A stretch of DNA of 64,000 nucleotides, taken from Escherichia coli. Its GTDB lineage: Bacteria > Pseudomonadota > Gammaproteobacteria > Enterobacterales > Enterobacteriaceae. Both the position numbers and the translations under genes were made by a program. The notes under the pieces were generated by a model that was not told where the DNA came from, searched no databases, and worked only from the letters and a program-made list of their open reading frames with translations. Shown here one piece after another: positions 1 through 13,091 of this stretch. The stretch is taken from assembly GCF_029227855.1 (NCBI RefSeq), contig NZ_CP074356.1; one strand, 5' to 3'. Positions within the stretch are counted from its first letter, which is position 1. Every line of letters starts with the position of its first letter.

Positions 1-102
1 GACACTGCGCTGGATCGTCTGATGCAGGGTGCACCGGCACCGCTGGCTGCAGGTAACCCGGCATCTGATGCCGTTAACGATTTGCTGAACACACCAGTGT
101 AA
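1..102 (+). CDS. C-terminal end of head scaffolding/protease gene (lambda C/Nu3-like); 5' end lies outside the window
   Basis: Open frame from window start to TAA at 100-102; lies immediately upstream of D as in the lambda head operon; only 33 codons visible. Confidence 0.55.
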   Translation, partial: DTALDRLMQGAPAPLAAGNPASDAVNDLLNTPV

Positions 103-111
103 GGGATGTTT

Positions 112-444
112 ATGACGAGCAAAGAAACCTTTACCCATTACCAGCCGCTGGGCAACAGTGACCCGGCTCATACCGCAACCGCGCCAGGCGGATTGAGTGC
201 GAAAGCGCCTGCAATGACCCCGCTGATGCTGGACACCTCCACCCGTAAGCTGGTTGCGTGGGATGGCACCACCGACGGTGCTGCTGTCGGCATTCTTGCT
301 GTTGCTGCTGACCAGACCAGCACCACGCTGACGTTCTACAAGTCCGGCACGTTCCGTTATGAGGATGTGCTCTGGCCGGAGGCTGCCAGCGACGAGACGA
401 AAAAACGGACCGCGTTTGCCGGAACGGCAATCAGCATCGTTTAA
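112..444 (+). CDS. D: head decoration protein D (lambda gpD)
   Basis: ORF 106-444; product from ATG 112 begins [11 protein letters not shown] and matches lambda gpD over its length (110 aa). Confidence 0.93.
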
Positions 445-499
445 CCTTACCCTTCATCACTAAAGGCCGCCTGTGCGGCTTTTTTTACGGGATTTTTTT

Positions 500-775
500 A
501 TGTCGATGTACACAACCGCCCAGCTGCTGGCGGCAAATGAGCAGAAATTTAAGTTTGATCCGCTGTTTCTGCGTCTCTTTTTCCGTGAGAGCTATCCCTT
601 CACCACGGAGAAAGTCTATCTCTCACAAATTCCGGGGCTGGTAAACATGGCGCTGTACGTTTCGCCGATTGTTTCCGGTGAGGTTATCCGCTCCCGTGGC
701 GGCTCCACCTCTGAATTTACGCCGGGATATGTCAAGCCGAAGCACTTAGCATGGCTTTCTGAGGCTTTCGTGTAG
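500..775 (+). pseudogene. E: major capsid protein E, 5' fragment (first ~82 codons), interrupted at 735-744 by an inserted element
   Basis: From ATG 500 the product MSMYTTAQLLAANEQKF...GYVKPKH is lambda gpE N-terminus; after the core at 735-744 the frame continues into unrelated sequence and stops at 775. Confidence 0.92.
735..744. repeat. attL core / target-site direct repeat (AGCCGAAGCA)
   Basis: Identical 10-mer recurs at 11864-11873; prophage E sequence resumes exactly after the right copy. Confidence 0.85.
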
Positions 776-872
776 CTGCTGGTTTTTACACTTAATCTTT
801 TGATAATAAAGAATAAGTTTATCTGGCGCTTTCACTGAATTTTCCTCGTTATCTGTGTGTTGCAATCATCTC

Positions 873-892
873 TGTATTGCAGCTTGTATTGC
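873..892 (+). promoter_or_regulatory. tandem TGTATTGC motifs (TGTATTGCAGCTTGTATTGC), putative integrase arm-type binding sites overlapping the int 5' region
   Basis: Near-identical 20-mer (TGTATTGCAGCATGTATTGC) recurs at 11769-11788 just inside the other att core. Confidence 0.5.
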
Positions 893-907
893 TTTTTGGG
901 GCTAAAA

Positions 908-2143
908 ATGGCTGGCGAGAACAAACTGAGCGACAAAGCGCTTAAAGGATATCTGGGGAAACCCAGAGAAAAGCAGATCACCATTGCTGATGGAAAGGGG
1001 CTTTCTATTCGTGTGAGTACTAAAGGGGCTGTGAGCTTTGTTTTCTTCTACAGGTTAGCAGGTGGCCGGGCTGCTCCGGTCTGGCTAACGTTGGGTAAAT
1101 ATCCTGATATGTCACTCAAACAGGCAAGGGAAAAGCGCGACGAGTGCCGTGGTTGGTTGGCTGACAAACGTGATCCGCGTATCCAGATTAAGATTCAGGC
1201 TGAAGAACGCTTAAAGCCGGTCACAGTGGAGGATGCACTAAATTACTGGTATGAAAATTACTGTAAGGTGCGTCGTAAAACTCATGCTGTAACGCTTGGC
1301 AGATTTCGAAAGCATATCTTTCCCTATATCGGTCATTTGCCCGTAAATGACACTCACCTATATGAATAGCTGGACTGTTTTGACCGAATTAAACGTAATG
1401 CACCAGTTATGGCGGCGTATGTTTTTTCTGACACTAAATTAGCTCTTCGTTTTTGTCGGGTACGCCAGTACGCGACGTGTGATGCTTTAAAGGATTTGCG
1501 CATGAGTGATGTGGGGCAGATTGCAGGTAAGCGGGATCGGGTTCTGGATGAGGTCGAACTCGGCCAGCTCTGGAAGGCAATTTTTGTCGAGCCTGATTTA
1601 AAACTAATGTCTGAATACACGCGAAAAATGTTTGTGCTTTGTACAGTATTTGGATGTCGAATGAGTGAAGCCCGATTATCAGAATGGAGCGAATGGGATC
1701 TCGAAAGTTGGGTTTGGACTGTGCCAAAAGATCACTCAAAAACTGGTGTTGAAATCGTCAGACCAGTACCTGAAATTCTACGACAGTGGGTAACGGATGT
1801 TCACGAAGAGACAAAACATACTGGTTATGTGCTGGGAAGTCTGCGAATTAGAGAAAGCGTAAGCAAGATTGGGGGGAAAATCGGTAAACGTTTGGGCCAT
1901 GAAAAACAATGGTCACTACACGACCTTAGAAGAACGCTATCTACTCATCTAAGTGATCTCGGTGTTGAATTTTATGTAGTAGAACAACTGTTAGGCCATG
2001 CGCTACCTGGCGTGGCAGGTGTTTACAACCGGAGTAAGTTTATGGCTAAAAAACTGGATGCTCTGGAACTCTGGACTACATATCTCAATAGCATCGCAGC
2101 TGCTGATTCAAAAGTGACAATCCTCAAACAAAAGGCTGGTTAG
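908..2143 (+). pseudogene. int: P4-type tyrosine integrase interrupted by an in-frame amber codon (TAG at 1367-1369)
   Basis: ORFs 857-1369 and 1409-2143 are in the same frame, separated by one TAG; N-terminal arm-binding region (MAGENKLSDKALKGYLGK...) and C-terminal catalytic region with HDLRRT, LLGHA and VYNRS (Tyr) motifs. Confidence 0.85.
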
Positions 2144-2144
2144 C

Positions 2145-2375
2145 ATGAAAAAAATGGCAATTGTTGATAAAAAGGGTCTGGAGTACATTCCTAACATTGA
2201 CCGAATGATCCGTGAGAAAGAATGTCGGGAGCTAACTACTCTTGCGAACAGCACACGCTGGAAGCTGGAGAAGGAAGGAAAATTTCCTAAGCGGATCAAG
2301 ATTGGTTCCACTGCTGTTGCATATCGTCTTTCAGAAGTGCAGGCATGGATTCGAGGTGAGTGGGAAACAACTTAA
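2145..2375 (+). CDS. alpA: AlpA-family HTH transcriptional regulator / excisionase-like protein
   Basis: 76-aa product with AlpA-type HTH (RIKIGSTAVAYRLSEVQAWI); immediately downstream of int as in P4-like and PICI elements. Confidence 0.8.
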   Translation: MKKMAIVDKKGLEYIPNIDRMIREKECRELTTLANSTRWKLEKEGKFPKRIKIGSTAVAYRLSEVQAWIRGEWETT

Positions 2376-2382
2376 CTATTAG

Positions 2383-3213
2383 GTGGGCATTGTGGCTATA
2401 TTTCATTATACAGATCTTTTTGGTTTGAAAGGTATATTAGACTCTAATTCTTTATGGGCTACAAACATATATTTCTTAAATGATAAAGAGGAGTCTAACC
2501 ATGGATGTGAATGCTTTCGAAATACAATTAAAATAGTTGATGACAATATCATTCCAAAAGATAAGAAAACTATTTTGCTCAAGTCTCTTGACATGTATGA
2601 GAAAGGGAGGTTACAAAAAGAAAAAGGGATTGATAAACATGTTTATAGCATCTCTTTTTGTAAGGAAAACGATAAGTTAAGTCAGTGGAGAGGTTACGGA
2701 AATAAACAGGGTGTTTGCATTGAGTTTGATGCGGATGAACTTGTGAGCTTTTCTCAAAATATTTATTTAAATTGTGTTGCACATGATGTTATATATTCAA
2801 ATAATAACGATATTACTAAGATGAGTAAGGAGTTGGGAGAGTTTTTTTCTTGTAATGGTATTAATATTAAAGAAATGAATGATCATTTTGTAACAATGGT
2901 CTCTACGTATCAATTTATATCTAAATACATCCCATTTTTTAAACATCCTAGTTTTATCGAAGAGAATGAATTTAGATTGGTATTTACTCCGTGGATGCAA
3001 ATGCCAGATGTGCACTTCAGAATAAATAATAATGGGATCATCCCTTATATCATCATTGATAATAAAGATAATAGAAAGTTACCAATTAAAAGCATTACAA
3101 TTGGCCCGACAAACGATTATGATTTCATTGAGGCTGGTATAAAAATGTTCTTGGATTCAAGAGGATTTAGTTCTGTGGAAATTAAATCCTCATCAATTCC
3201 ATTCAGGGGGTAA
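2383..3213 (+). CDS. uncharacterised 276-aa protein, AT-rich accessory gene (candidate defence/abortive-infection cargo)
   Basis: Long ORF with GTG start at 2383 (alternative GTG at 2392 has AGGTGG 5 nt upstream); visibly AT-rich relative to int and primase; no confident family match by eye. Confidence 0.6.
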   Translation: MGIVAIFHYTDLFGLKGILDSNSLWATNIYFLNDKEESNHGCECFRNTIKIVDDNIIPKDKKTILLKSLDMYEKGRLQKEKGIDKHVYSISFCKENDKLSQWRGYGNKQGVCIEFDADELVSFSQNIYLNCVAHDVIYSNNNDITKMSKELGEFFSCNGINIKEMNDHFVTMVSTYQFISKYIPFFKHPSFIEENEFRLVFTPWMQMPDVHFRINNNGIIPYIIIDNKDNRKLPIKSITIGPTNDYDFIEAGIKMFLDSRGFSSVEIKSSSIPFRG

Positions 3214-3344
3214 GGATTAACACTTTTAATCTATGATATTATAAAAATGGTGGATAAAGGCGACCAGAATTGGTCGCCAATGTGAGTATATAGTTAGCCT
3301 TAATCAGAATACGAGGTTATCGCCTGATAGGCAATGTGAACAGT

Positions 3345-3701
3345 TCAATATTTAGGTGGTTCAACAAGAGCGTTTATCATTGCTCTCAAATTATCGCGAA
3401 CACTTATCCAAGTCTGTTCTGCTCGTTCTAACTCATCAGTGTACAACTTTAATGTTTTATCTATGCCATATGTGGCTATTAAATTTATAGCTTCTTGTAA
3501 TTTTTCAGGATTATTCCTTCTTGGGGGAGTGAATATACCACGGATTTTTCCGGTAATTAAAGCTTTACGGTGTCTACATAGAATACCTTTACTTCCTGCT
3601 GGACAATTACAAGTCATGATTAGCGAGCCAGAATCGTTTGATACAGTGACTATGTATACATCCAAACTACTGCTACTTGTTGCGAAGAATTCGTATTTCA
3701 T
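3345..3701 (-). CDS. SWIM-type zinc-finger protein (118 aa)
   Basis: CxC...CxH motif (CNCPAGSKGILCRH); AAGGAG Shine-Dalgarno about 8 nt upstream of the ATG; downstream of the Arc-like gene on the same strand. Confidence 0.6.
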   Translation of the reverse strand: MKYEFFATSSSSLDVYIVTVSNDSGSLIMTCNCPAGSKGILCRHRKALITGKIRGIFTPPRRNNPEKLQEAINLIATYGIDKTLKLYTDELERAEQTWISVRDNLRAMINALVEPPKY

Positions 3702-3728
3702 GTGTTAGCTCCTTGACTTCAATTATTC

Positions 3729-3920
3729 TTATCCTTTTGGTTCAATACCGCGCCGTAGCAGCTCTTTGCGCCCTAATTCTTTAAGCCAGTTGGCTAGGCT
3801 TATGCCGTCGCTCTGCGCTTCTTTGTCGAATTGCTCTTTTAGCTCTGGAGAAATTCGCATTCTGAATTGTGGAGATTGCCCATCACCCTTAGGACTTTTA
3901 TCGCGTTTGATCGTTGACAA
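3729..3920 (-). CDS. Arc/MetJ-type ribbon-helix-helix DNA-binding protein (candidate satellite repressor)
   Basis: C-terminal part ...PQFRMRISPELKEQFDKEAQSDGISLANWLKELGRKEL resembles Arc repressor; start uncertain (TTG at 3920 with AGGTGG upstream, or ATG further in; ORF track gives 3729-4043); divergent from the + strand operon that starts at 4060. Confidence 0.55.
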   Translation of the reverse strand: MSTIKRDKSPKGDGQSPQFRMRISPELKEQFDKEAQSDGISLANWLKELGRKELLRRGIEPKG

Positions 3921-4059
3921 GTGACCACCTATTGAATTAGCCTTTTCATTGTTAGGTGACCACCTTAACACGGGGGCACTTAAAAAAGCAAAGCCCGAAG
4001 GTGCTGGGAACACCAACGGGCTTCTAACCACCAACGATAGCAACAGTATCGAGGTAGCT

Positions 4060-4263
4060 ATGAGAAATCATACCACACACCCGCAAGGGCGGGACCCGCA
4101 CAACCTGAATAAATACATCTGGCGTTTTATCGCCTTGAGTACGGCACAACCGCGCATGATTACCATCGAGGCCATCAGCGAACAGGAAGCCCGCCAGCAA
4201 TCCCCAACTGGCTGCGTGATGGTATTCGCCGCCCGTATTCGTCAGGAGGTGTGCCGTGCTTAA
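4060..4263 (+). CDS. hypothetical small protein (first gene of operon leading to primase)
   Basis: ATG 4060 preceded by GAGG; in frame with ORF 3949-4263. Confidence 0.45.
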   Translation: MRNHTTHPQGRDPHNLNKYIWRFIALSTAQPRMITIEAISEQEARQQSPTGCVMVFAARIRQEVCRA

Positions 4264-4441
4264 AACCTTCCGTGTATTTGCCCGAGCTGTTAACCCACTG
4301 GGCCACACAATTGGTATCACTCAGAACGTGAAGGCTGTTAATGTTCAGACGGCTATTGCTGCGGTGAGAAGCGAATCATCAGAATATGGCTTATCACAAG
4401 TCATTATTTCAGCAGTGTATGAATTAAAAGAGGTGCATTAA
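4256..4441 (+). CDS. hypothetical small protein (61 aa)
   Basis: ORF whose start overlaps the upstream stop (translational coupling). Confidence 0.4.
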   Translation: MLKTFRVFARAVNPLGHTIGITQNVKAVNVQTAIAAVRSESSEYGLSQVIISAVYELKEVH

Positions 4442-4632
4442 TGCAGGAAATCACATTACACGAAGCCGCTGAACGTGCGCACCAGACAGAAATTATTTGC
4501 CGCCTTCTTGAGGTATACCCGAACAAAATTACAGATGCTGATATATCCGCGCTGGCGAGCCTACTGGCGCGCCTTTCGGGAAGTGTCGCTAGTTTCCTGA
4601 TTGAGGAAGAAAGTAAGCTGGTGGGGGATTAA
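4441..4632 (+). CDS. hypothetical small protein (63 aa)
   Basis: ATG overlaps upstream stop (TAATG); co-directional operon. Confidence 0.45.
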   Translation: MQEITLHEAAERAHQTEIICRLLEVYPNKITDADISALASLLARLSGSVASFLIEEESKLVGD

Positions 4633-4854
4633 ATGAATACAGAACGGGAAGTCTTTTTTAAATTGTTAGCATGTGCAGAAAGTTCATTAACTTTAAATAA
4701 TTCAGCAAAAGCAATATTAAATATGTGGCTTGATTGCATAAATGACAATGAAGATGCAAATATTGCTTATGGCCTGTTGTCACTTATTGATGAATCAGCA
4801 GAAAAACTCAATGACGCAATAAATAGTGCCCTGCTATCAAATAAGTCGAGTTAA
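4633..4854 (+). CDS. hypothetical small protein (73 aa), AT-rich
   Basis: ORF directly abutting the upstream stop. Confidence 0.4.
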   Translation: MNTEREVFFKLLACAESSLTLNNSAKAILNMWLDCINDNEDANIAYGLLSLIDESAEKLNDAINSALLSNKSS

Positions 4855-4871
4855 GTCGAGGAATAAATAAT

Positions 4872-5171
4872 ATGGAAATGAAAAATTCTGGCTTTATTGC
4901 CAGCGGCCCCGCTCGGCCTGAATTTATGAACGGCGATATTTACCGCGATAAATACGGCGGCACGGTAACGATTAAAGGCGTGGCAGAACGGCGCATCACT
5001 TACCGCCGTGAGGGGTATAGCTATGACTGCGTGATGCCTGTTTATCAGTTCCGGCGTGATTTTTCCCTGGTATATGCCGCACCCCGCAGTAAGCCCATCA
5101 GCAGGGAAAAAGCGCGGGGAAACATCCAGAAAATGAAAAGCATGATTAACGCATTCAGGGGCAAAAAATGA
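4872..5171 (+). CDS. hypothetical protein (99 aa)
   Basis: ORF whose stop overlaps the primase start. Confidence 0.45.
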   Translation: MEMKNSGFIASGPARPEFMNGDIYRDKYGGTVTIKGVAERRITYRREGYSYDCVMPVYQFRRDFSLVYAAPRSKPISREKARGNIQKMKSMINAFRGKK

Positions 5172-6919
5172 AACTGGCACCGAACTTAAAAAAACAGCCA
5201 CGCGACAGACTGACAGAGGTAATCATCTTTGCAGGTAGTGATGCGTGGAGCCATGCGAAAGAGTGGCGGGAATGGGCGGGTAAACATATTGCCGCCGACG
5301 ATGTGCCGCCTGTCGTGCTGGCTGATGAGCAACTGAAAAATATCACCGATTACCGGATCATTGATGAAGATCGTCAGTGTGTGCGTGTTTACCGCGCAGG
5401 ACATATCACAGAGCACAGCATGACGCAGATTGTTACGTTACTGGCTGTGGCTGGAGTGAAGACCGTACACGAATACGCGGGGATTACTGACACCAGCCCA
5501 GTGGATTTATCCGAGCAGTTGCCGCGACTCAAAGAGGAATGCGAGCGTGGGGAAAGTCTGGTGCTTAATCTTCCGACGAAGCAAAAGGCGCAACTTTCAC
5601 AGATGGCAGACAGTGAACGTGCACAACTACTTGCCGATCGCTTTGATGGTGTGTGTGTTCATGCAGAAAGTGAAATCGTCCACGTATGGCGCGGCGGGGT
5701 ATGGTGTCCGGTCAGCACAATGGAGCTGAGCCGCGAAATGGTGGCGATCTATTCAGAGCACAGGGCCACGTTCAGCAAACGTGTAATCAATAACGCCGTG
5801 GAAGCGTTAAAAGTTATTGCCGACCCCATGGGGGAGCCGTCCGGTGATTTGCTACCGTTCACTAATGGTGTGCTTAACCTGAAAACGGGGGAATTTTCTC
5901 CGCACTCGCCGGAGCACTGGAGCACCACGCACAATGGCATTGAGTACACGCCACCAGTAGCAGGGGAAAACATCCGCGATAATGCGCCAAATTTCCATAA
6001 ATGGCTTGAACATGCTGCAAGAAAAGACCCGCGCAAGATGATGCGTATATGTGCCGCGTTATACATGATTATGGCGAACCGCTACGACTGGCAGATGTTC
6101 ATTGAGGCCACCGGAGACGGGGGAAGCGGTAAGAGTACATTTACCCATATTGCCACCCTGCTTGCTGGCAAACAGAACACCGTAAGCGCGGAGATGACAT
6201 CACTCGATGATGCAGGAGGGCGCGCGCAGGTTGTCGGGAGTCGTCTTATCGTCCTTGCCGATCAGCCGAAATATACGGGGGAAGGCACGGGCATCAAGAA
6301 AATCACGGGAGGCGATCCCGTTGAAATTAACCCGAAATATGAGAAGCGATTCACGACGATAATAAGGGCGGTGGTACTGGCAACCAATAACGACCCGATG
6401 ATCTTTACCGAACGGGCCGGAGGTGTGTCACGCCGTCGGGTGATTTTCCGGTTCGACAACATTGTAAGGGAGGACGAAAAAGACAAGGAATTACCGGAAA
6501 AGATAGCGGCAGAAATCCCCGTAATTATCCGCCGCTTGCTGGCTAATTTTGCTGACCCTGAAAAGGCACGGGCTTTATTACTGGAACAGCGTGACGGTGA
6601 TGAAGCTCTGGCAATAAAGCAGCAAACGGATCCGGTTGTTGAGCTTTGCGCGGCGCTGGAGTTTCTGGAGGAAGCTCGTGGGCTAATGATGGGCGGTGGT
6701 GGTGACACCGTGAAGTACACGACCAGAAACAGCCTTTACCGTGTCTATATGGCCTTCATGGCATACACAGGAAAGGGGAAATGTTTGAGCGTGAATGAGT
6801 TCGGAAAGGCTATGAGGTCAGCGGCGAAAGTTTACGGATATGAATATATTACGCGAAAAGTTAAGGGAGTCACGCAGACCAACGCAACGACTACTGATGA
6901 TTGCGATGCGTTTTTATAA
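5168..6919 (+). CDS. P4-alpha-type replication primase/helicase (phage/plasmid primase, P4 family C-terminal domain)
   Basis: 583-aa product with Walker A GDGGSGKST and surrounding blocks typical of P4-family primase C-terminal domains; followed by iterons. Confidence 0.85.
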   Translation: MKLAPNLKKQPRDRLTEVIIFAGSDAWSHAKEWREWAGKHIAADDVPPVVLADEQLKNITDYRIIDEDRQCVRVYRAGHITEHSMTQIVTLLAVAGVKTVHEYAGITDTSPVDLSEQLPRLKEECERGESLVLNLPTKQKAQLSQMADSERAQLLADRFDGVCVHAESEIVHVWRGGVWCPVSTMELSREMVAIYSEHRATFSKRVINNAVEALKVIADPMGEPSGDLLPFTNGVLNLKTGEFSPHSPEHWSTTHNGIEYTPPVAGENIRDNAPNFHKWLEHAARKDPRKMMRICAALYMIMANRYDWQMFIEATGDGGSGKSTFTHIATLLAGKQNTVSAEMTSLDDAGGRAQVVGSRLIVLADQPKYTGEGTGIKKITGGDPVEINPKYEKRFTTIIRAVVLATNNDPMIFTERAGGVSRRRVIFRFDNIVREDEKDKELPEKIAAEIPVIIRRLLANFADPEKARALLLEQRDGDEALAIKQQTDPVVELCAALEFLEEARGLMMGGGGDTVKYTTRNSLYRVYMAFMAYTGKGKCLSVNEFGKAMRSAAKVYGYEYITRKVKGVTQTNATTTDDCDAFL

Positions 6920-6933
6920 AAAATGGCAATGGT

Positions 6934-7161
6934 TATCTACCTTGTCTACCTGACTGAAAGAAAATACTTTTATTTCAATGTATTAATGCAGGTAGATAAC
7001 TATTTTTCACTGTCTACCTGTTATCTACCTTATCTACCCATTTTTGTAGACAGGTAAGGAGACGGGTAGAGATGAGGTAGACAGCTATTTGGGGCTGTCT
7101 ACCTCCCTGAAACCCGCGCCATTACTGGCCTGATAACTAATCAGGTAGACAAGGTAGACAA
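6934..7161. repeat. replication-origin iterons (about 12 copies of T[GT]TCTACC / GGTAGA[CT]A in both orientations)
   Basis: Dense cluster of the 8-9-bp motif in the non-coding stretch immediately downstream of the primase gene. Confidence 0.75.
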
Positions 7162-7208
7162 GGTGGTGGTGCACAAAAAACTTTTTAAACGAGGGGGTAA
7201 AAATAAAA

Positions 7209-7466
7209 ATGCACACTTCAGGAAAACTGAACAAACATATAAAGCCACATTACCGCGCCCTTGATATGGCTGAACACTGGCTAAGGGTGGCGATTAAGGC
7301 AATAGACCGCAACGCCGGGGAAGGATACGCGAAAGCACATCCCGAACTGATAAGCGCATTCATGACAACGGCGGCTGCAAACTTTGCCACGCTGACCGAA
7401 CGGGAGATTGCTGAAGCGGAGGAAGTGACAACAATCAATATTAAGTCCGGAGAGCAGGCAGCATGA
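7209..7466 (+). CDS. hypothetical protein (85 aa)
   Basis: ORF whose stop overlaps the ssb start (ATGA). Confidence 0.45.
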   Translation: MHTSGKLNKHIKPHYRALDMAEHWLRVAIKAIDRNAGEGYAKAHPELISAFMTTAAANFATLTEREIAEAEEVTTINIKSGEQAA

Positions 7467-7912
7467 CGGCGCAAATATCAGTTTACGGGCGGTTGGTGGA
7501 CGACCCGCAGACAAAACAGACCAGCAAGGGCACCCCCATGACGCTGGCGCGTATGGCGGTATCACTGCCCTGCAGTCAGTCGGATGACGGTCTGGCGACG
7601 TTGTGGTTATCTGTCCTGGCGTTTGGCAGACAAGCCGACGCGCTGGCAAAGCATCACAAAGGCGAACTCCTGAGCGTGGCGGGTAACATGCAGATGAGCC
7701 AGTGGACTGGACAGAACGGCGAAACGCGGCAGGGCTGGCAGGTTATCGCAGACAGCGTAATCAGTGCGCGATCGGTGCGACCGGGCGGCAAAAAAGGCCA
7801 ACAGGGGCAGGCTACTGACGCACTGAACAGAGCAAAACAACAGGCAGATCAGCAAGGAAGCCAGCCACCAGAGGGAGATAATGAGCAATGGGGAGATGAT
7901 ATCCCGTTTTAA
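7463..7912 (+). CDS. ssb: single-stranded DNA-binding protein (SSB)
   Basis: 149-aa product with OB-fold-like N-terminal region and acidic C-terminal tail ending DDIPF. Confidence 0.75.
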   Translation: MTAQISVYGRLVDDPQTKQTSKGTPMTLARMAVSLPCSQSDDGLATLWLSVLAFGRQADALAKHHKGELLSVAGNMQMSQWTGQNGETRQGWQVIADSVISARSVRPGGKKGQQGQATDALNRAKQQADQQGSQPPEGDNEQWGDDIPF

Positions 7913-8128
7913 ATATTGCCAATAAAAAAAGCCGGAAAAAATAAATTTTCCGGCATGCTACATAAATCCCGACCAAAGGGAGTGAAGATATTAACACTAA
8001 TTGTCCGCACTGAAGTTGTCACACCAAAACTTTATACAACATTGCACTCGGTTGCATGTGTTCGCATGACAAATATCGGTGATAGCATATATCCACAATT
8101 ATTTTTAATGAATGCAAAGAGGATGCGT

Positions 8129-9169
8129 ATGGTTGATTTATATTCGCCTACTCAGCTTGTACAGGTAGTTAATGCTGTAGATGTACAAAAACAACTAAAT
8201 GCGTTGTTTACCAGTTTGTTTTTTACTCGCTCGGTAATGTTTGAATCGCGCGATATTATTCTTGATACAATCGACGATCCAAATATCCCAATTGCAGCGT
8301 TTTGTTCTCCTATGGTGGGTAGTAAAGTTTCACGTGACGAAGGGTACGAATCAAAAACAATTCGTCCAGGCTATATGAAGCCGAAAAGCAGCATTGATCC
8401 AAATAAGTTAGCTGTGCGCCCTGCTGGTGTGTCACCTGAGCAATACAATGCTTTTGGGGCGCGTAATATTAAAGTTAAACAGGCGATTGTAAATCAGGCT
8501 AAAGCTATTCGTGCACGTATTGAATGGCTTGCTGTTCAGGCAATCACAACGGGGAAAAATATCATTGAGGGCGATGGTATTGAACGTTATGAGCTGGACT
8601 GGAATATAAAACCACAAAATATCATCACTCAGTCTGGCGGTACTGAGTGGTCAGGTAAGGATAAAGAAACTTTTGATCCAAATGATGATATTGAGAGCTA
8701 CGCAGAATTTAGTGAGGGCGTCACTAATATCATCATTATGGGTGGTAATGTATGGAAGAAATACCGTTCATTCAGAGCGATAAAAGAGGCTTTGGATACC
8801 CGTCGTGGTTCTAATTCCGAACTGGAAACGGCCCTTAAAGACCTTGGTGATTCGGTGAGTTTTAAAGGGTATATGGGCGATGTTGCGATTGTTGTTTACA
8901 GCGGGCGTTATACCGACGAGGACGGAACAGAAAAACATTTCCTTGATCCTGATTTGATGGTGCTTGGCAATACGGCTCTTCAGGGGATTGTCGCCTATGG
9001 CGGTATTCAGGATCCGGAGCTAATCCGAATGGGGCTGACTAAAGCCGAACTTGCACCGAAAAACTATATTGTGCCTGGTGATCCGGCTATTGAATATGTG
9101 CAGACACATTCAGCACCACAGCCAATACCGGCCCGCATCAATCGTTTTGTTACCGTTCGCATTGGCTAA
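8129..9169 (+). CDS. major capsid protein paralogue (lambda gpE-like) encoded by the satellite
   Basis: ORF 7916-9169; from ATG 8129 (GAGG upstream) the product aligns collinearly with the prophage's own E, sharing blocks ITQSGGTEWS, DTRRGS.SELETA.KDLG and GDVAIVVYSG. Confidence 0.85.
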   Translation: MVDLYSPTQLVQVVNAVDVQKQLNALFTSLFFTRSVMFESRDIILDTIDDPNIPIAAFCSPMVGSKVSRDEGYESKTIRPGYMKPKSSIDPNKLAVRPAGVSPEQYNAFGARNIKVKQAIVNQAKAIRARIEWLAVQAITTGKNIIEGDGIERYELDWNIKPQNIITQSGGTEWSGKDKETFDPNDDIESYAEFSEGVTNIIIMGGNVWKKYRSFRAIKEALDTRRGSNSELETALKDLGDSVSFKGYMGDVAIVVYSGRYTDEDGTEKHFLDPDLMVLGNTALQGIVAYGGIQDPELIRMGLTKAELAPKNYIVPGDPAIEYVQTHSAPQPIPARINRFVTVRIG

Positions 9170-9178
9170 GGGGGAGCA

Positions 9179-9520
9179 ATGGCTACTCATTACACTGAAC
9201 TCATGGCTGGCACTGAAGCACTGGTGACTACGCTGGGGATATTTTCAGCTAATAAAGGGGTAATTCCTGCATTTACGCCACTGATGCAGGAAGATGCAAC
9301 AGGTGCACTGGTGGTATGGGATGGTTCGAGCGTAGGTAAAGCGGTTTATGTTTCCGCTGTACAAATCGACACCGCGAAAAAAACACAGGCTCAGGTCTAT
9401 AAGACAGGTGTCTTAAATGTTGATGCTCTGAACTGGCCTGAGTCTGTTAAAGAACTGTCAGTAAAGGTTGCAGCGTTTGTTGGCTCAGGTATTTCTGTTC
9501 AGCCGCTGGCTCGTGTGTAA
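9179..9520 (+). CDS. head decoration protein paralogue (lambda gpD-like) encoded by the satellite
   Basis: 113-aa product alignable with prophage D at 112-444 (LVVWDGSSVGKAV versus [13 protein letters not shown]; shared C-terminal G.AISV region). Confidence 0.75.
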   Translation: MATHYTELMAGTEALVTTLGIFSANKGVIPAFTPLMQEDATGALVVWDGSSVGKAVYVSAVQIDTAKKTQAQVYKTGVLNVDALNWPESVKELSVKVAAFVGSGISVQPLARV

Positions 9521-9531
9521 AGGGGGATACA

Positions 9532-9915
9532 ATGCAGAATGATTACAATGACCTTAAGCCAATTGCCGAAATGATGTACCCGAATCAAGCTGTAGAGGAA
9601 TTAAAAGCTATCGCTGACAAAATGTGTTTAAGCGAGCGCCTTGTTGATATGAATCAGGTGATGGAAATTACAACCCTGAGTCGTCGTACACTGCTAAACC
9701 TTGAGGCTAGTGGAGAGTTCCCGGAGCGTGTGCAGGTTACGGAAGGGCGTAAGGCCTGGTATTTAAGTGAAGTGATCGACTGGATAAATAATATTCCTCG
9801 CGCTTCTGAATATTGCCGCGTACCTGTCCCAAAAAAGCCAGATGCGGCGCTATGCCTCAAGATTGAGCGTGTACGCCGCAATGCACGGGATGGTCGCTAT
9901 AAGCTGATTGGTTGA
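9532..9915 (+). CDS. AlpA-family HTH protein adjacent to cos (candidate packaging-redirection or regulatory protein)
   Basis: 127-aa product with AlpA-type HTH (ITTLSRRTLLNLEASGEFPERVQV) and a basic C-terminal extension; immediately upstream of the cos site. Confidence 0.55.
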   Translation: MQNDYNDLKPIAEMMYPNQAVEELKAIADKMCLSERLVDMNQVMEITTLSRRTLLNLEASGEFPERVQVTEGRKAWYLSEVIDWINNIPRASEYCRVPVPKKPDAALCLKIERVRRNARDGRYKLIG

Positions 9916-9923
9916 TGAAATTA

Positions 9924-9950
9924 GGACCCGCTCTGGCTGGCGGGTCCTTT
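9924..9950 (+). terminator. hairpin terminator-like element after gene 9532-9915
   Basis: GGACCCG...CGGGTCC stem followed by TTT. Confidence 0.4.
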
Positions 9951-10145
9951 CCGGCGATCCAGAACGTTACGGGGCGTCAGGCGCGCAGTTTTTCGCTATT
10001 TGTGAAAATTTTCCTGTTTAAGGCGTTTCCGTTCTTCTTCGCCGTAACTTAATGTTTTTATTAAAAACACCCCCTAAAAAGAAAGGAAACGACAGGTGCT
10101 AAAAACAGGCTTTTTGGCCTCTGTCGTTTCCTTTCTCTGGTTTTG
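9940..10145. other. lambda-type cos site (cosN-equivalent at about 9972-9983; cosB R3-I1-R2-R1 to about 10140)
   Basis: Stretch TTTTCGCTATTTGTGAAAATTTTCCTGTTTAAGGCGTTTCCGTTCTTCTTCG...AAAGAAAGGAAACGACAGGTGCT...GGCTTTTTGGCCTCTGTCGTTTCCTTTCTCTG closely matches the left end of phage lambda (cosB) from memory; cosN 12-mer reads GGGCGTCAGGCG instead of GGGCGGCGACCT; no Nu1 gene follows. Confidence 0.8.
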
Positions 10146-10513
10146 TTGCCATCCGTCGCGGTCTATCACCAGAAAAAATCTTATCCCTGAGTTGAATCAG
10201 GCCCTATTCAGAAGCGGCCAATAACGCGCCGCTAGCTTCACTTCATAGTTATGGCCTACTTCTGCGCCATTGCAATTGCTTTATGCGCCTTGATGGTGGA
10301 ATATAGAGCAAGCAGTTTGCGAATAACAAAGTTTCATATGTTTTTTGCTGTGTGGCTAGACAACTTTACAGCAGAGTTTTGTGTCAGTTCTTTATGTGTG
10401 CAAGCAAGCTTGAGGGGGAATTACTTCTGGCTGTATCTTTGCTTAAGAACAGCAATAATTTAATCATAAGGAAATGTATATAAGCCTGATTAAATTTCAG
10501 GCTTATTGAAATG

Positions 10514-11656
10514 TTAACTCCTTATTAGAGAGTAAATTCCATCCTCTTTAAGGAAGTCTATTACTTCAAAGAATGAGATAAAGAATTCCCAAGAACCAAA
10601 AGCATATGCATGAATTTCGTAAGGTGCAAAATGGAATCTAAATCCATCACTATTTATTGTGAACGAGTCTAAGTTACTATCCATGATACCCGTTGCAAAC
10701 GTACTAATGTCGTCCTCACTTGGTTTTTCACCAGTTTTCTCCCAAAATTCACGAGCTGATTCAGAGATTATTTTTTGTTTTATCTTATTAATCGCTTCTT
10801 GCTCTTTCCCTTCGGTAAATACATCCCATAAACTAAATTTGTATGCGTAGTCATCCTTGGTTATTACGAAATTACTAGTTTCAAAATGACTGTTAGGGTG
10901 TGCTGCTCCCGCACCATACCAATGTACGGAATGAAGGATGCTCATGACATTTTCGTTACAGTATGAGATGTTATAACTTTCATTATAGGAACTAGTGTAA
11001 GTGTGTTTATATTCTTCATCCCAATATGGTGTTCCTGGCCATAGTGATGTGCGTTCAGAAAAAATATGTAAAGCCGCTTTTCCTGAAAAGTAATCACTAA
11101 TGAGTTTTGCTGATTTCGGTAATGTATGGCTTTCAATTCTTGGATATGCTATTTCAATTTCATGCCCTGGGATCTTGTTATATTCTTCCTTGAAAACCTC
11201 GCTGCTAAAGTTAAATGGCCCATAAGTGATACCTTGAGATATTTCAAGTTTTTGTTGCGATGCTGCTAATCTTAAAGATCTAGATAAAATGTCCCAACCA
11301 TCATTTCTCTTAAAATCAATGAATTGGAGCTTGCTTGATATGTAGGCGGGTACTTCGCAATCATCAATAAGTAATGGTATCACGAACACATCATCTGGTT
11401 TGTAATACTTTAGTTTATCAATGGCGTCATTTATTTCGCGGCGAATATAACCATTTTTCTGAGTGCTCACTTTGCTAAGGATAAGGATTATCAAGTTTGA
11501 ATTAGCGAAGTTTTTTTGGATTTCATAATCCCAGTTTACGCCAGCGGGTATATCTTTTACATCCATCCAAGGGGAATATCCTCCACTTTTTAGCCTTTCA
11601 TAGATTTCTTCAGTTATCGTTTCATCTTCTTTTGCATGAGCAAGAAAAATTTTCAT
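10514..11656 (-). CDS. TIR-domain protein with C-terminal domain of unknown function (candidate anti-phage defence gene)
   Basis: 380-aa product; N-terminal about 135 aa looks like a TIR domain (MKIFLAHAKEDE...ILILSKVS...REINDAIDKL); C-terminal about 240 aa unassigned (contains HWYGAGAAHP motif); AT-rich; last gene before attR. Confidence 0.7.
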   Translation of the reverse strand: MKIFLAHAKEDETITEEIYERLKSGGYSPWMDVKDIPAGVNWDYEIQKNFANSNLIILILSKVSTQKNGYIRREINDAIDKLKYYKPDDVFVIPLLIDDCEVPAYISSKLQFIDFKRNDGWDILSRSLRLAASQQKLEISQGITYGPFNFSSEVFKEEYNKIPGHEIEIAYPRIESHTLPKSAKLISDYFSGKAALHIFSERTSLWPGTPYWDEEYKHTYTSSYNESYNISYCNENVMSILHSVHWYGAGAAHPNSHFETSNFVITKDDYAYKFSLWDVFTEGKEQEAINKIKQKIISESAREFWEKTGEKPSEDDISTFATGIMDSNLDSFTINSDGFRFHFAPYEIHAYAFGSWEFFISFFEVIDFLKEDGIYSLIRS

Positions 11657-11768
11657 TGAATATTCCTTTATAATTTAACTAATTAAGTGAAGGAGGCTTT
11701 ACTTGGCTGTGTTAGAAAAAATTCGGTTTGTTTTTTGTACGATGCCAAGAAGGCTTTTCCCTAACCAT

Positions 11769-11788
11769 GTATTGCAGCATGTATTGCT
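11769..11788 (+). promoter_or_regulatory. tandem TGTATTGC motifs (putative integrase arm-type sites, right arm)
   Basis: TGTATTGCAGCATGTATTGC, 19/20 identical to 873-892. Confidence 0.5.
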
Positions 11789-11863
11789 ACGTAATTCTGC
11801 ACCCTCTCATTTATAAAATAAATCTCTGTTAAATCAAGTATCTTTTTTCTATTTGACTCATGT

Positions 11864-11873
11864 AGCCGAAGCA
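11864..11873. repeat. attR core / target-site direct repeat (AGCCGAAGCA)
   Basis: Identical to 735-744; E sequence (HEVNPQMTL...) resumes from this point. Confidence 0.85.
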
Positions 11874-12699
11874 TGAGGTGAATCCGCAGATGACCCTGCG
11901 TCGCCTGCCGGATGAAGATCCGCAGAATCTGGCGGACCCGGCTTACCGCCGCCGTCGCATCATTATGCAGAACATGCGTGACGAAGAGCTGGCCATTGCC
12001 CAGGTCGAAGAGATGCAGGCAGTTTCTGCCGTGCTTAAGGGCAAATACACCATGACCGGTGAAGCCTTCGATCCGGTTGAGGTGGATATGGGCCGCAGTG
12101 AGGCGAATAACATCACGCAGTCCGGCGGCACGGAGTGGAGCAAGCGTGACAAGTCCACGTATGACCCGACCGACGATATCGAAGCCTACGCGCTGAACGC
12201 CAGCGGAGTGGTGAATATCATCGTGTTTGATCCGAAAGGCTGGGCGCTGTTCCGTTCCTTCAAAGCCGTCAAGGAGAAGCTGGATACTCGTCGCGGCTCT
12301 CATTCCGAGCTGGAGACAGCGGTGAAAGACCTGGGCAAAGCGGTGTCCTACAAGGGGATGTATGGCGATGTGGCCATCGTCGTGTATTCCGGACAGTACG
12401 TGGAAAACGGCGTCAAAAAGAACTTCCTGCCGGACAACACGATGGTGCTGGGGAACACTCAGGCACGCGGTCTGCGCACCTATGGCTGCATTCAGGATGC
12501 GGACGCACAGCGCGAAGGCATTAACTCCTCTGCCCGTTACCCGAAAAACTGGGTGACCACCGGCGATCCGGCGCGTGAGTTCACCATGATTCAGTCAGCA
12601 CCGCTGATGCTGCTGGCTGACCCTGATGAGTTCGTGTCCGTACAACTGGCGCAATCGTGGCCCTTCGGGGCCATTTTCTCTCTGTGGAGGAGTCCATGA
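11864..12699 (+). pseudogene. E: major capsid protein E, 3' fragment (about 260 codons), with the lambda stop position read as CAA
   Basis: Product ...EVNPQMTLRRLPDEDPQ...DEFVSVQLA is lambda gpE from about residue 83; 500-744 plus 11874-12654 equals 1026 nt, the lambda E length; frame runs on 15 codons to TGA at 12697-12699. Confidence 0.9.
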
Positions 12700-13091
12700 C
12701 GAAAGATGAACTGATTGTCCGTCTCCGGTCGCTGGGTGAGCAACTGAACCGTGATGTCAGCCTGACGGGGACGAAAGAAGAACTGGCGCTCCGTGTGGCA
12801 GAGCTGGAAGAGGAGCTTGATGACACGGATGACGCTGCCGGTCAGGATACCCCTCTCAGACCGGAAAATGCGCTGACCGGACATGAAAATGAGGTGGTAT
12901 CAGAGCAGCCGGATACCATGATTGATACGGCTGCTCTGGTCACGGTCGTGGCACTGGTGACGCTGCATACTGATGCACTTCACGCCACGCGGGATGAACC
13001 TGTGGCATTTGTGCTGCCGGGAACGGCGTTTCGTGTCTCTGTCGGTGTGGCAGCCGAAATGACAGAACGTGGCCTGGCCAGAATGCAATAA
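12696..13091 (+). CDS. FI: DNA-packaging/head assembly protein FI
   Basis: Product MTKDELIVRLRSLGEQLNRD... matches lambda gpFI. Confidence 0.9.
   Translation: MTKDELIVRLRSLGEQLNRDVSLTGTKEELALRVAELEEELDDTDDAAGQDTPLRPENALTGHENEVVSEQPDTMIDTAALVTVVALVTLHTDALHATRDEPVAFVLPGTAFRVSVGVAAEMTERGLARMQ

Follow-up and report, generated by a model that had tools for sequence, protein, structure and literature searches.

A single amber codon interrupts the integrase gene of a helper-embedded satellite in an Escherichia coli prophage and probably locks the satellite in place

The integrase gene (int) of a phage satellite embedded in a lambdoid prophage of Escherichia coli carries a single in-frame amber codon, TAG at 1367..1369 on the plus strand of the window, by which we mean the whole 64-kb stretch of DNA that was analysed. 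In the account that we consider likely, a lineage-specific G-to-A change at base 1368 turned the Trp154 codon (TGG) of this integrase into amber and so disabled the gene: translation would end halfway through the core-binding domain, which follows the arm-binding domain, the protein would lack the catalytic domain and, without a working integrase, the satellite would be unable to excise or reintegrate by itself. In the 11capE family, to which we assign the satellite, restoration of the helper’s major capsid gene E needs satellite excision; with the satellite locked, E would stay split and the prophage–satellite composite would probably be a transmission dead end. The system itself has already been described; what is added here is an allele of its integrase with a nonsense codon.

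The gene occupies 908..2143 on the plus strand, a frame of 411 codons that ends in a normal terminal stop at 2143 and whose translation meets one internal stop only, the TAG at codon 154. An initial annotation of this DNA had described one gene, spanning 857-2143, with one in-frame amber codon between its arm-binding and catalytic regions. Translation and Pfam searches both agree with this description of the gene and its amber codon; of the span, the frame 908-2143 holds, whereas 857 is not the gene start but merely the first GTG of the mechanical open reading frame, orthologues being annotated as beginning at the ATG at 908. The mechanical list of open reading frames gives the two halves of int as 857-1369 and 1409-2143. 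A natural gene end at codon 154 followed by an independent downstream gene, a possibility raised in the same annotation, is ruled out: relatives carry one 411-aa gene and no orthologue shows such an arrangement.

For the Pfam domain search, Trp was put at residue 154 of the conceptual translation. The arm-binding domain (PF13356, E = 7.7e-19) was found at residues 7-93, the SAM-like/central, or core-binding, domain (PF14659 and PF22022) at residues 106-198 and the catalytic domain (PF00589) at residues 232-377, so codon 154 falls midway through the core-binding domain, past the arm-binding region and before the catalytic one. The translatable N-terminal fragment (153 aa; 908..1366, plus strand) carries the arm-binding domain and the first half of the core-binding domain. 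The remainder of the frame with the catalytic domain (1409..2143, plus strand, from the open reading frame list) holds R251, K278, H338, R341, H364 and Y373, which we take to be the R-K-H-R-H-Y catalytic set of tyrosine recombinases; these six residues, all downstream of the stop, are invariant in 118 homologues. Solved structures matching the protein by sequence are arm-domain fragments only, namely the CP4-like integrase arm domains 3ju0 and 3jtz, and none covers residue 154. By descent, int belongs with the tyrosine recombinases that have an Arm-DNA-bind_3 N-terminus (P4/CP4-57-like); by state, with the TAG at codon 154 breaking what would be a single uninterrupted polypeptide, it is a pseudogene by one nonsense codon.

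Several comparisons bear on the codon that preceded the amber. Relative to an intact 411-aa orthologue, int is 99.3% identical, with the internal stop at alignment position 154. The closest complete-genome orthologues (L001 and L002) show 3-4 differences from the window over 1287 bases, among them base 1368, which is A in the window and G in both orthologues, giving TGG. Eight further fetched relatives also have TGG at codon 154 (10/10 fetched relatives in all). When a 61-mer round this codon was sought in the 175 complete E. coli genomes carrying the site, the TGG version was exact in 159 and the TAG version in none (0/175). TGG had been offered as the ancestral codon in the initial annotation as a guess, and the ten relatives and 159/175 exact 61-mers now point firmly to it. 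Moreover, in an alignment of 118 integrase homologues from Enterobacterales (48-83% identity; single proteins of about 400-420 aa), position 154 is Trp in all 118 and is one among 33 invariant positions; the residue is strongly constrained.

Past the TAG, the frame remains open for 257 codons and contains one amino-acid change. Neither of two neighbouring substitutions, at window positions 1552 and 1554 (GAA GCC to GAG GTC; E215 silent, A216V), is present in the closest orthologues. A full-length conceptual protein combining W154 with V216 was not found in a collection of 15 billion proteins, and for that reason both substitutions appear to be specific to the amber lineage. With the frame past the stop undamaged but for this pair, the knockout would be recent or, less likely, the frame is under selection.

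In the same 15-billion-protein collection, the exact 153-aa and exact 244-aa products of int occur solely in Logan assemblies of public runs. Logan contigs from four runs are identical to the window, TAG included, over 7,696 bp (SRR18105866), 4,958 bp (SRR10254033), 2,463 bp (SRR5866348) and 2,458 bp (DRR063306). As far as assemblies show, a one-off assembly error is excluded as the source of the TAG; the earlier concern that base 1368 might be a sequencing error is answered at the assembly level, four separately assembled read sets having reproduced the codon. The four run assemblies may share one strain or clone, and they speak to artefact and say little about the spread of the allele. That the strain really has TGG, and that the TAG is a sequencing or assembly error, is extremely unlikely: such an error would fit a site at which the window departs by one base from every one of the 159 or more orthologues, but the four runs reproduce the TAG with zero differences over 2.5-7.7 kb, and the site lies outside any homopolymer, with no Dam or Dcm motif seen there.

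Three further contigs (L007, L008 and L009), drawn from other samples, match the 153-aa fragment only by virtue of ending within 2 nt of base 1368; they were left out of the TAG evidence. Ending at window positions 1366-1368, they carry TG or end just short, and show no TAG. Such ends could have been selected for, as an artefact, by the exact-match look-up, or could mark a break of the assembly graph where mixed samples are polymorphic.

Two in-frame restart codons follow the stop: an ATG at 1409, without a Shine-Dalgarno sequence, and an ATG at 1502, with AAGGA upstream. As gene callers also predicted downstream products of 244 aa and 213 aa, int could be imagined as a split integrase, in which the N-terminal arm-binding fragment and a separately initiated C-terminal catalytic fragment work together. 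We give this next to no credence. The break lies inside the core-binding domain (106-198), leaving neither piece with the whole domain; either restart product would be without the arm domain and without part or all of the core-binding domain; and the arrangement is seen in no relative, homologues being single proteins of about 400-420 aa. Lambda Int, too, speaks against activity, as its fragments are incapable of arm-dependent recombination once the arm or core-binding domain is missing.

We place int in an 11.1-kb helper-embedded PICI (HE-PICI) of the 11capE type, whose insertion point is codon 82 of the E gene in a lambdoid prophage. The initial annotation had likewise put the gene in a satellite inserted in helper gene E, and att repeats, the rejoining of the flanks and the annotation of relatives all agree. 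The window opens with a lambda-type D gene, followed by the first 82 codons of E (500..745, plus strand), the translation of which matches lambda-type E and which relatives, at the same position, have annotated as ‘major capsid protein, missing C-terminus’. Past codon 82 on this left side, no E-restoring sequence was found. The 3′ fragment of E lies at 11874..12699 (plus strand), in frame with 500-744; the two E fragments flank the island, with D upstream of it and FI to J downstream. A 10-bp att identity block, AGCCGAAGCA, stands at 735..744 (attL core) and recurs as an exact repeat at 11864..11873 (attR core), both on the plus strand, and joined translation of the E flanks across this block gives an in-frame E.

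A full-length ‘major capsid protein’ annotated after the island was considered as a restored, chimeric E and rejected, as it is the satellite’s own E-like gene (8129-9169). The helper E 3′ fragment stands further right than that gene.

The doubled TGTATTGC motif, a presumed arm-type site, has two matches in the window compared with 0 expected by chance. One is on the int side, at 873..892 (plus strand), about 133 bp from the core centre; the second, co-oriented copy, at 11768..11787 (plus strand), ends 81 bp before the core centre. As published (Tommasini, Mageeney & Williams, NAR Genom Bioinform 2023; PMC10111431), HE-PICIs carry a diagnostic doubled motif, tgTGTATTGCantgTGTATTGCa, 81 ± 2 bp upstream and 132 ± 2 bp downstream from the centre of attP; the copies at 11768-11787 and 873-892 fit this spacing. 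The att core and both doubled arm motifs are intact.

With its core and arm motifs preserved, the element could still be moved by an integrase provided in trans. In that event, the intact integrase of a second or incoming HE-PICI would mobilise a satellite that is non-autonomous rather than immobile, and we regard this as unlikely. The 10-bp core at both ends and the doubled motifs at canonical spacing would serve such a rescue, as would the intact alpA, and some E. coli genomes hold two copies of this integrase; nevertheless, a search for a second integrase homologue within the 64-kb window found none, and the median is one integrase copy per carrying genome.

The genes of the satellite follow the order int, alpA, DUF2971 and SWIM genes, small open reading frames, a D5-type primase, SSB, an E-like capsid gene, a D-like decoration gene, a second AlpA-like gene, a cos-like region and, on the opposite strand, TIR/DUF3298 cargo. 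The first alpA (2145..2375, plus strand; Phage_AlpA regulator/excisionase-like, with PF05930 found on an orthologue) is intact and encodes a protein 100% identical to that of relatives. It starts 1 nt past the int stop, so the premature stop in int could lower its expression by polarity, an effect that Q-antiterminated late transcription should resist. Also intact is the primase/replication gene (D5_N, DUF5906; 5168..6919, plus strand), at 99.8% identity over its full length. The E-like major capsid gene (8129..9169, plus strand) has 42% identity to the rejoined E and the D-like decoration gene (9179..9520, plus strand) 38% identity to D; both are intact and 100% identical at the protein level to those of relatives, the integrase of these relatives being intact. 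The helper is without an intact E, yet the cell is not without a capsid protein, the satellite’s E-like and D-like genes being undamaged.

The satellite’s cos-like region (9960..10150, plus strand) matches unannotated intergenic stretches in lambdoid phages at 90-92% identity and resembles a helper region in L004 that contains cosN. The cosN-like sequence of the satellite is GGGCGTCAGGCG, that of the helper is GGGCGGCGACCT, at position 1203 of L004, and in the unexcised composite the two cos sites are co-oriented and about 15.6 kb apart.

Of 61 reference genes taken from two relatives and mapped to the window, int alone has an internal stop. All other satellite genes compared are intact, at 98-100% identity to their counterparts in relatives whose integrase is undamaged. 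This pattern, with int alone stopped among intact genes, points to a knockout that is recent and isolated within the satellite, and the lesion would be a very recent, cleanly reversible point mutation.

At 3729-4043 of the window (3730-3996 in L010), relatives with an intact integrase have a short RefSeq pseudo-CDS labelled ‘hypothetical protein, internal stop’. Bro-type proteins and immunity RNAs have been placed in the zone that holds this stretch (PMC10111431). An Rfam search of positions 1-13000, aimed at immunity RNAs, gave no match of any family at the gathering threshold.

The cargo gene (10514..11656, minus strand) encodes a 380-aa TIR_2 and DUF3298 protein, with PADLOC TIR-family matches at 1.6e-17; its Pfam domains were read on identical proteins in many HE-PICIs. 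It is a candidate anti-phage function. The variable cargo slot extends over 9916-11760, and the relative L010 holds another gene there. In the sequence collection, 2597 blocks index an identical TIR protein, and all seven of the listed places (7/7) are HE-PICIs at the same site.

The amber codon might instead be read through, by a suppressor tRNA of host or phage or by natural leakiness, in which case mobility would be conditional and not lost. Low-level natural UAG readthrough is possible, and the enzyme is needed in small amounts, integrases acting at low copy number; the open frame of 257 codons past the stop, with one amino-acid change only, and a second TGG-to-TAG change, in the portal gene of the same lineage, also favour readthrough. 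Even so, we hold it to be very unlikely. A search of the window for tRNA genes found none; there are 0 other in-frame stops among the 61 mapped genes, and so no hint of general amber tolerance; and TAG at codon 154 is found in no orthologue, hence there is no conserved recoding signal. Common amber suppressors insert Gln, Tyr or Ser and not Trp, the residue at position 154 in 118/118 homologues, and the host, which reaches no more than 99.1% identity with any of 5426 genomes, is not a K-12 laboratory strain. As supE inserts Gln and supF inserts Tyr, either of which would replace an invariant Trp, a supE/supF background may not rescue int function.

Lock-in of the satellite is thus the reading that we favour, since the catalytic residues lie past the stop, the window has neither a second integrase nor a tRNA gene, and E needs excision for its restoration: the satellite most likely cannot excise itself, and E would remain split. 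Given the amber codon, excision from the helper after induction and helper-dependent packaging are predicted to fail. Decay of an integrase is what grounds cryptic prophages and islands in general, as recombinase loss fixes an element in place.

The described system to which the satellite was compared is Eco567.11capE of E. coli NRG857c, a HE-PICI of 11 kb at E:Phage_cap_E:80 with its own capsid gene; 11capE elements have a 10-bp identity block at E codon ~80 and a shared cos-like segment (Tommasini, Mageeney & Williams, 2023; PMC10111431). The window satellite is likewise about 11 kb long, with the same lambda-type E insertion point, 10-bp identity block and orientation. It also has the same succession of int, alpA, variable zone, primase, SSB, capsid, decoration, second alpA-like gene, cos and cargo, and its doubled TGTATTGC motifs stand at equal spacing. 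The NRG857c integrase 61-mer has one mismatch to the TAG version of the window, and int as a whole is 99.3-99.8% identical (nucleotide or protein) to integrases of islands at the same E site, NRG857c being among the genomes matched, and belongs to the HE-PICI integrase clade. Judged on every feature testable in sequence, the satellite agrees with the E:Phage_cap_E:80 group of HE-PICIs and is assigned to it. It differs from Eco567.11capE in the nonsense codon at invariant Trp154 and in the TIR/DUF3298 gene in its cargo slot; in addition, whereas the NRG857c helper is in icd, the window helper lies beside a diguanylate cyclase gene and zinT. The same island stands in the same place in E in about 175 complete E. 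coli genomes; for int copies per carrying genome, the median is one, with two in some E. coli genomes.

Gram-negative PICIs such as EcCICFT073 share with the window satellite the int-alpA-primase arrangement, a lambdoid helper, cos packaging and captured capsid genes (PMC10111431). Islands of the EcCICFT073 type are in chromosomal genes and have contact with the helper in trans only, whereas the window satellite interrupts a helper late gene, and loss of its integrase would for that reason also disable the helper gene. A different lesion is present in E. coli IAI39 (L016, CU928164.2), where an IS3-family insertion near codon 108 disrupts the same integrase, in contrast to the one point mutation of the window. 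Other alleles in the same 90% cluster (P0005, P0006 and P0010) have foreign N- or C-termini. Integrase loss thus recurs in this satellite clade. The words ‘pseudogene’, ‘nonsense’ and ‘inactiv’ are absent from the main text of PMC10111431, and integrase-null alleles are not discussed there.

The helper prophage has two lineage-specific lesions of its own, both in the head region. The stop codon of E is lost through a TAA-to-CAA change at 12649-12651, which adds 15 residues before a TGA (12697-12699) overlapping the start of FI. This TAA is present in 8/8 relatives, and the window 61-mer at the lost stop occurs in 0/1630 E. coli genomes. Upstream of window position 1, the portal gene B (L004, about 5540-5570) has a TGG-to-TAG change and a 7-bp deletion, read in contigs that are 100% identical to the window where they overlap it; the product has 509 residues compared with 533, and the variant is in 0/5426 complete E. 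coli genomes. The lost E stop and the portal truncation would fit relaxed selection on a helper that no longer makes E, though such lesions are few.

The consequences of integrase loss can be framed by a model named “regulated gene integrity”. In that model, satellite excision alone rebuilds the helper capsid gene. Published work shows that the whole composite excises and replicates after induction and that the satellite excises later, E being inexpressible until then; the attP of an 11capE-type satellite carries no replacement for E, and the idea of the satellite capsid gene as a backup copy has been raised (Tommasini, Mageeney & Williams, 2023; PMC10111431). The window allele is a natural, single-base and otherwise clean integrase-null of a helper-embedded satellite, for which the model predicts that this lysogen excises and replicates the composite and never rebuilds E. 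Complemented with wild-type int, the strain would be a ready-made test of the model, and it would also show whether the satellite capsid genes can replace E.

A locked composite might even represent a satellite–helper fusion in progress, using the satellite’s E-like and D-like head genes and two cos sites, but we judge this highly unlikely. As such a fusion would have it, conservation of the capsid and decoration paralogues is 100% and there is a cos-like site; against this, the portal truncation and the lost E stop point to decay. If the fusion reading were true, the co-oriented cos sites, with about 15.6 kb between them, would bound a packageable sub-genome; helper genes could in this way be permanently replaced by satellite capsid genes, giving rise to new mosaic lambdoid phages. 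Beyond its use as a test of the model, the allele is a case of ordinary mobile-element decay and leaves existing knowledge unchanged.

On its chromosomal side, the helper prophage adjoins the diguanylate cyclase gene and zinT. None of 5426 complete E. coli genomes exceeds 99.1% identity to the chromosomal part of the window (29000-64000), and on account of this ceiling the host lineage is taken to be absent from that set. The same stretch contains, besides the diguanylate cyclase gene and zinT, msrPQ, hprRS, dcm and fli genes.
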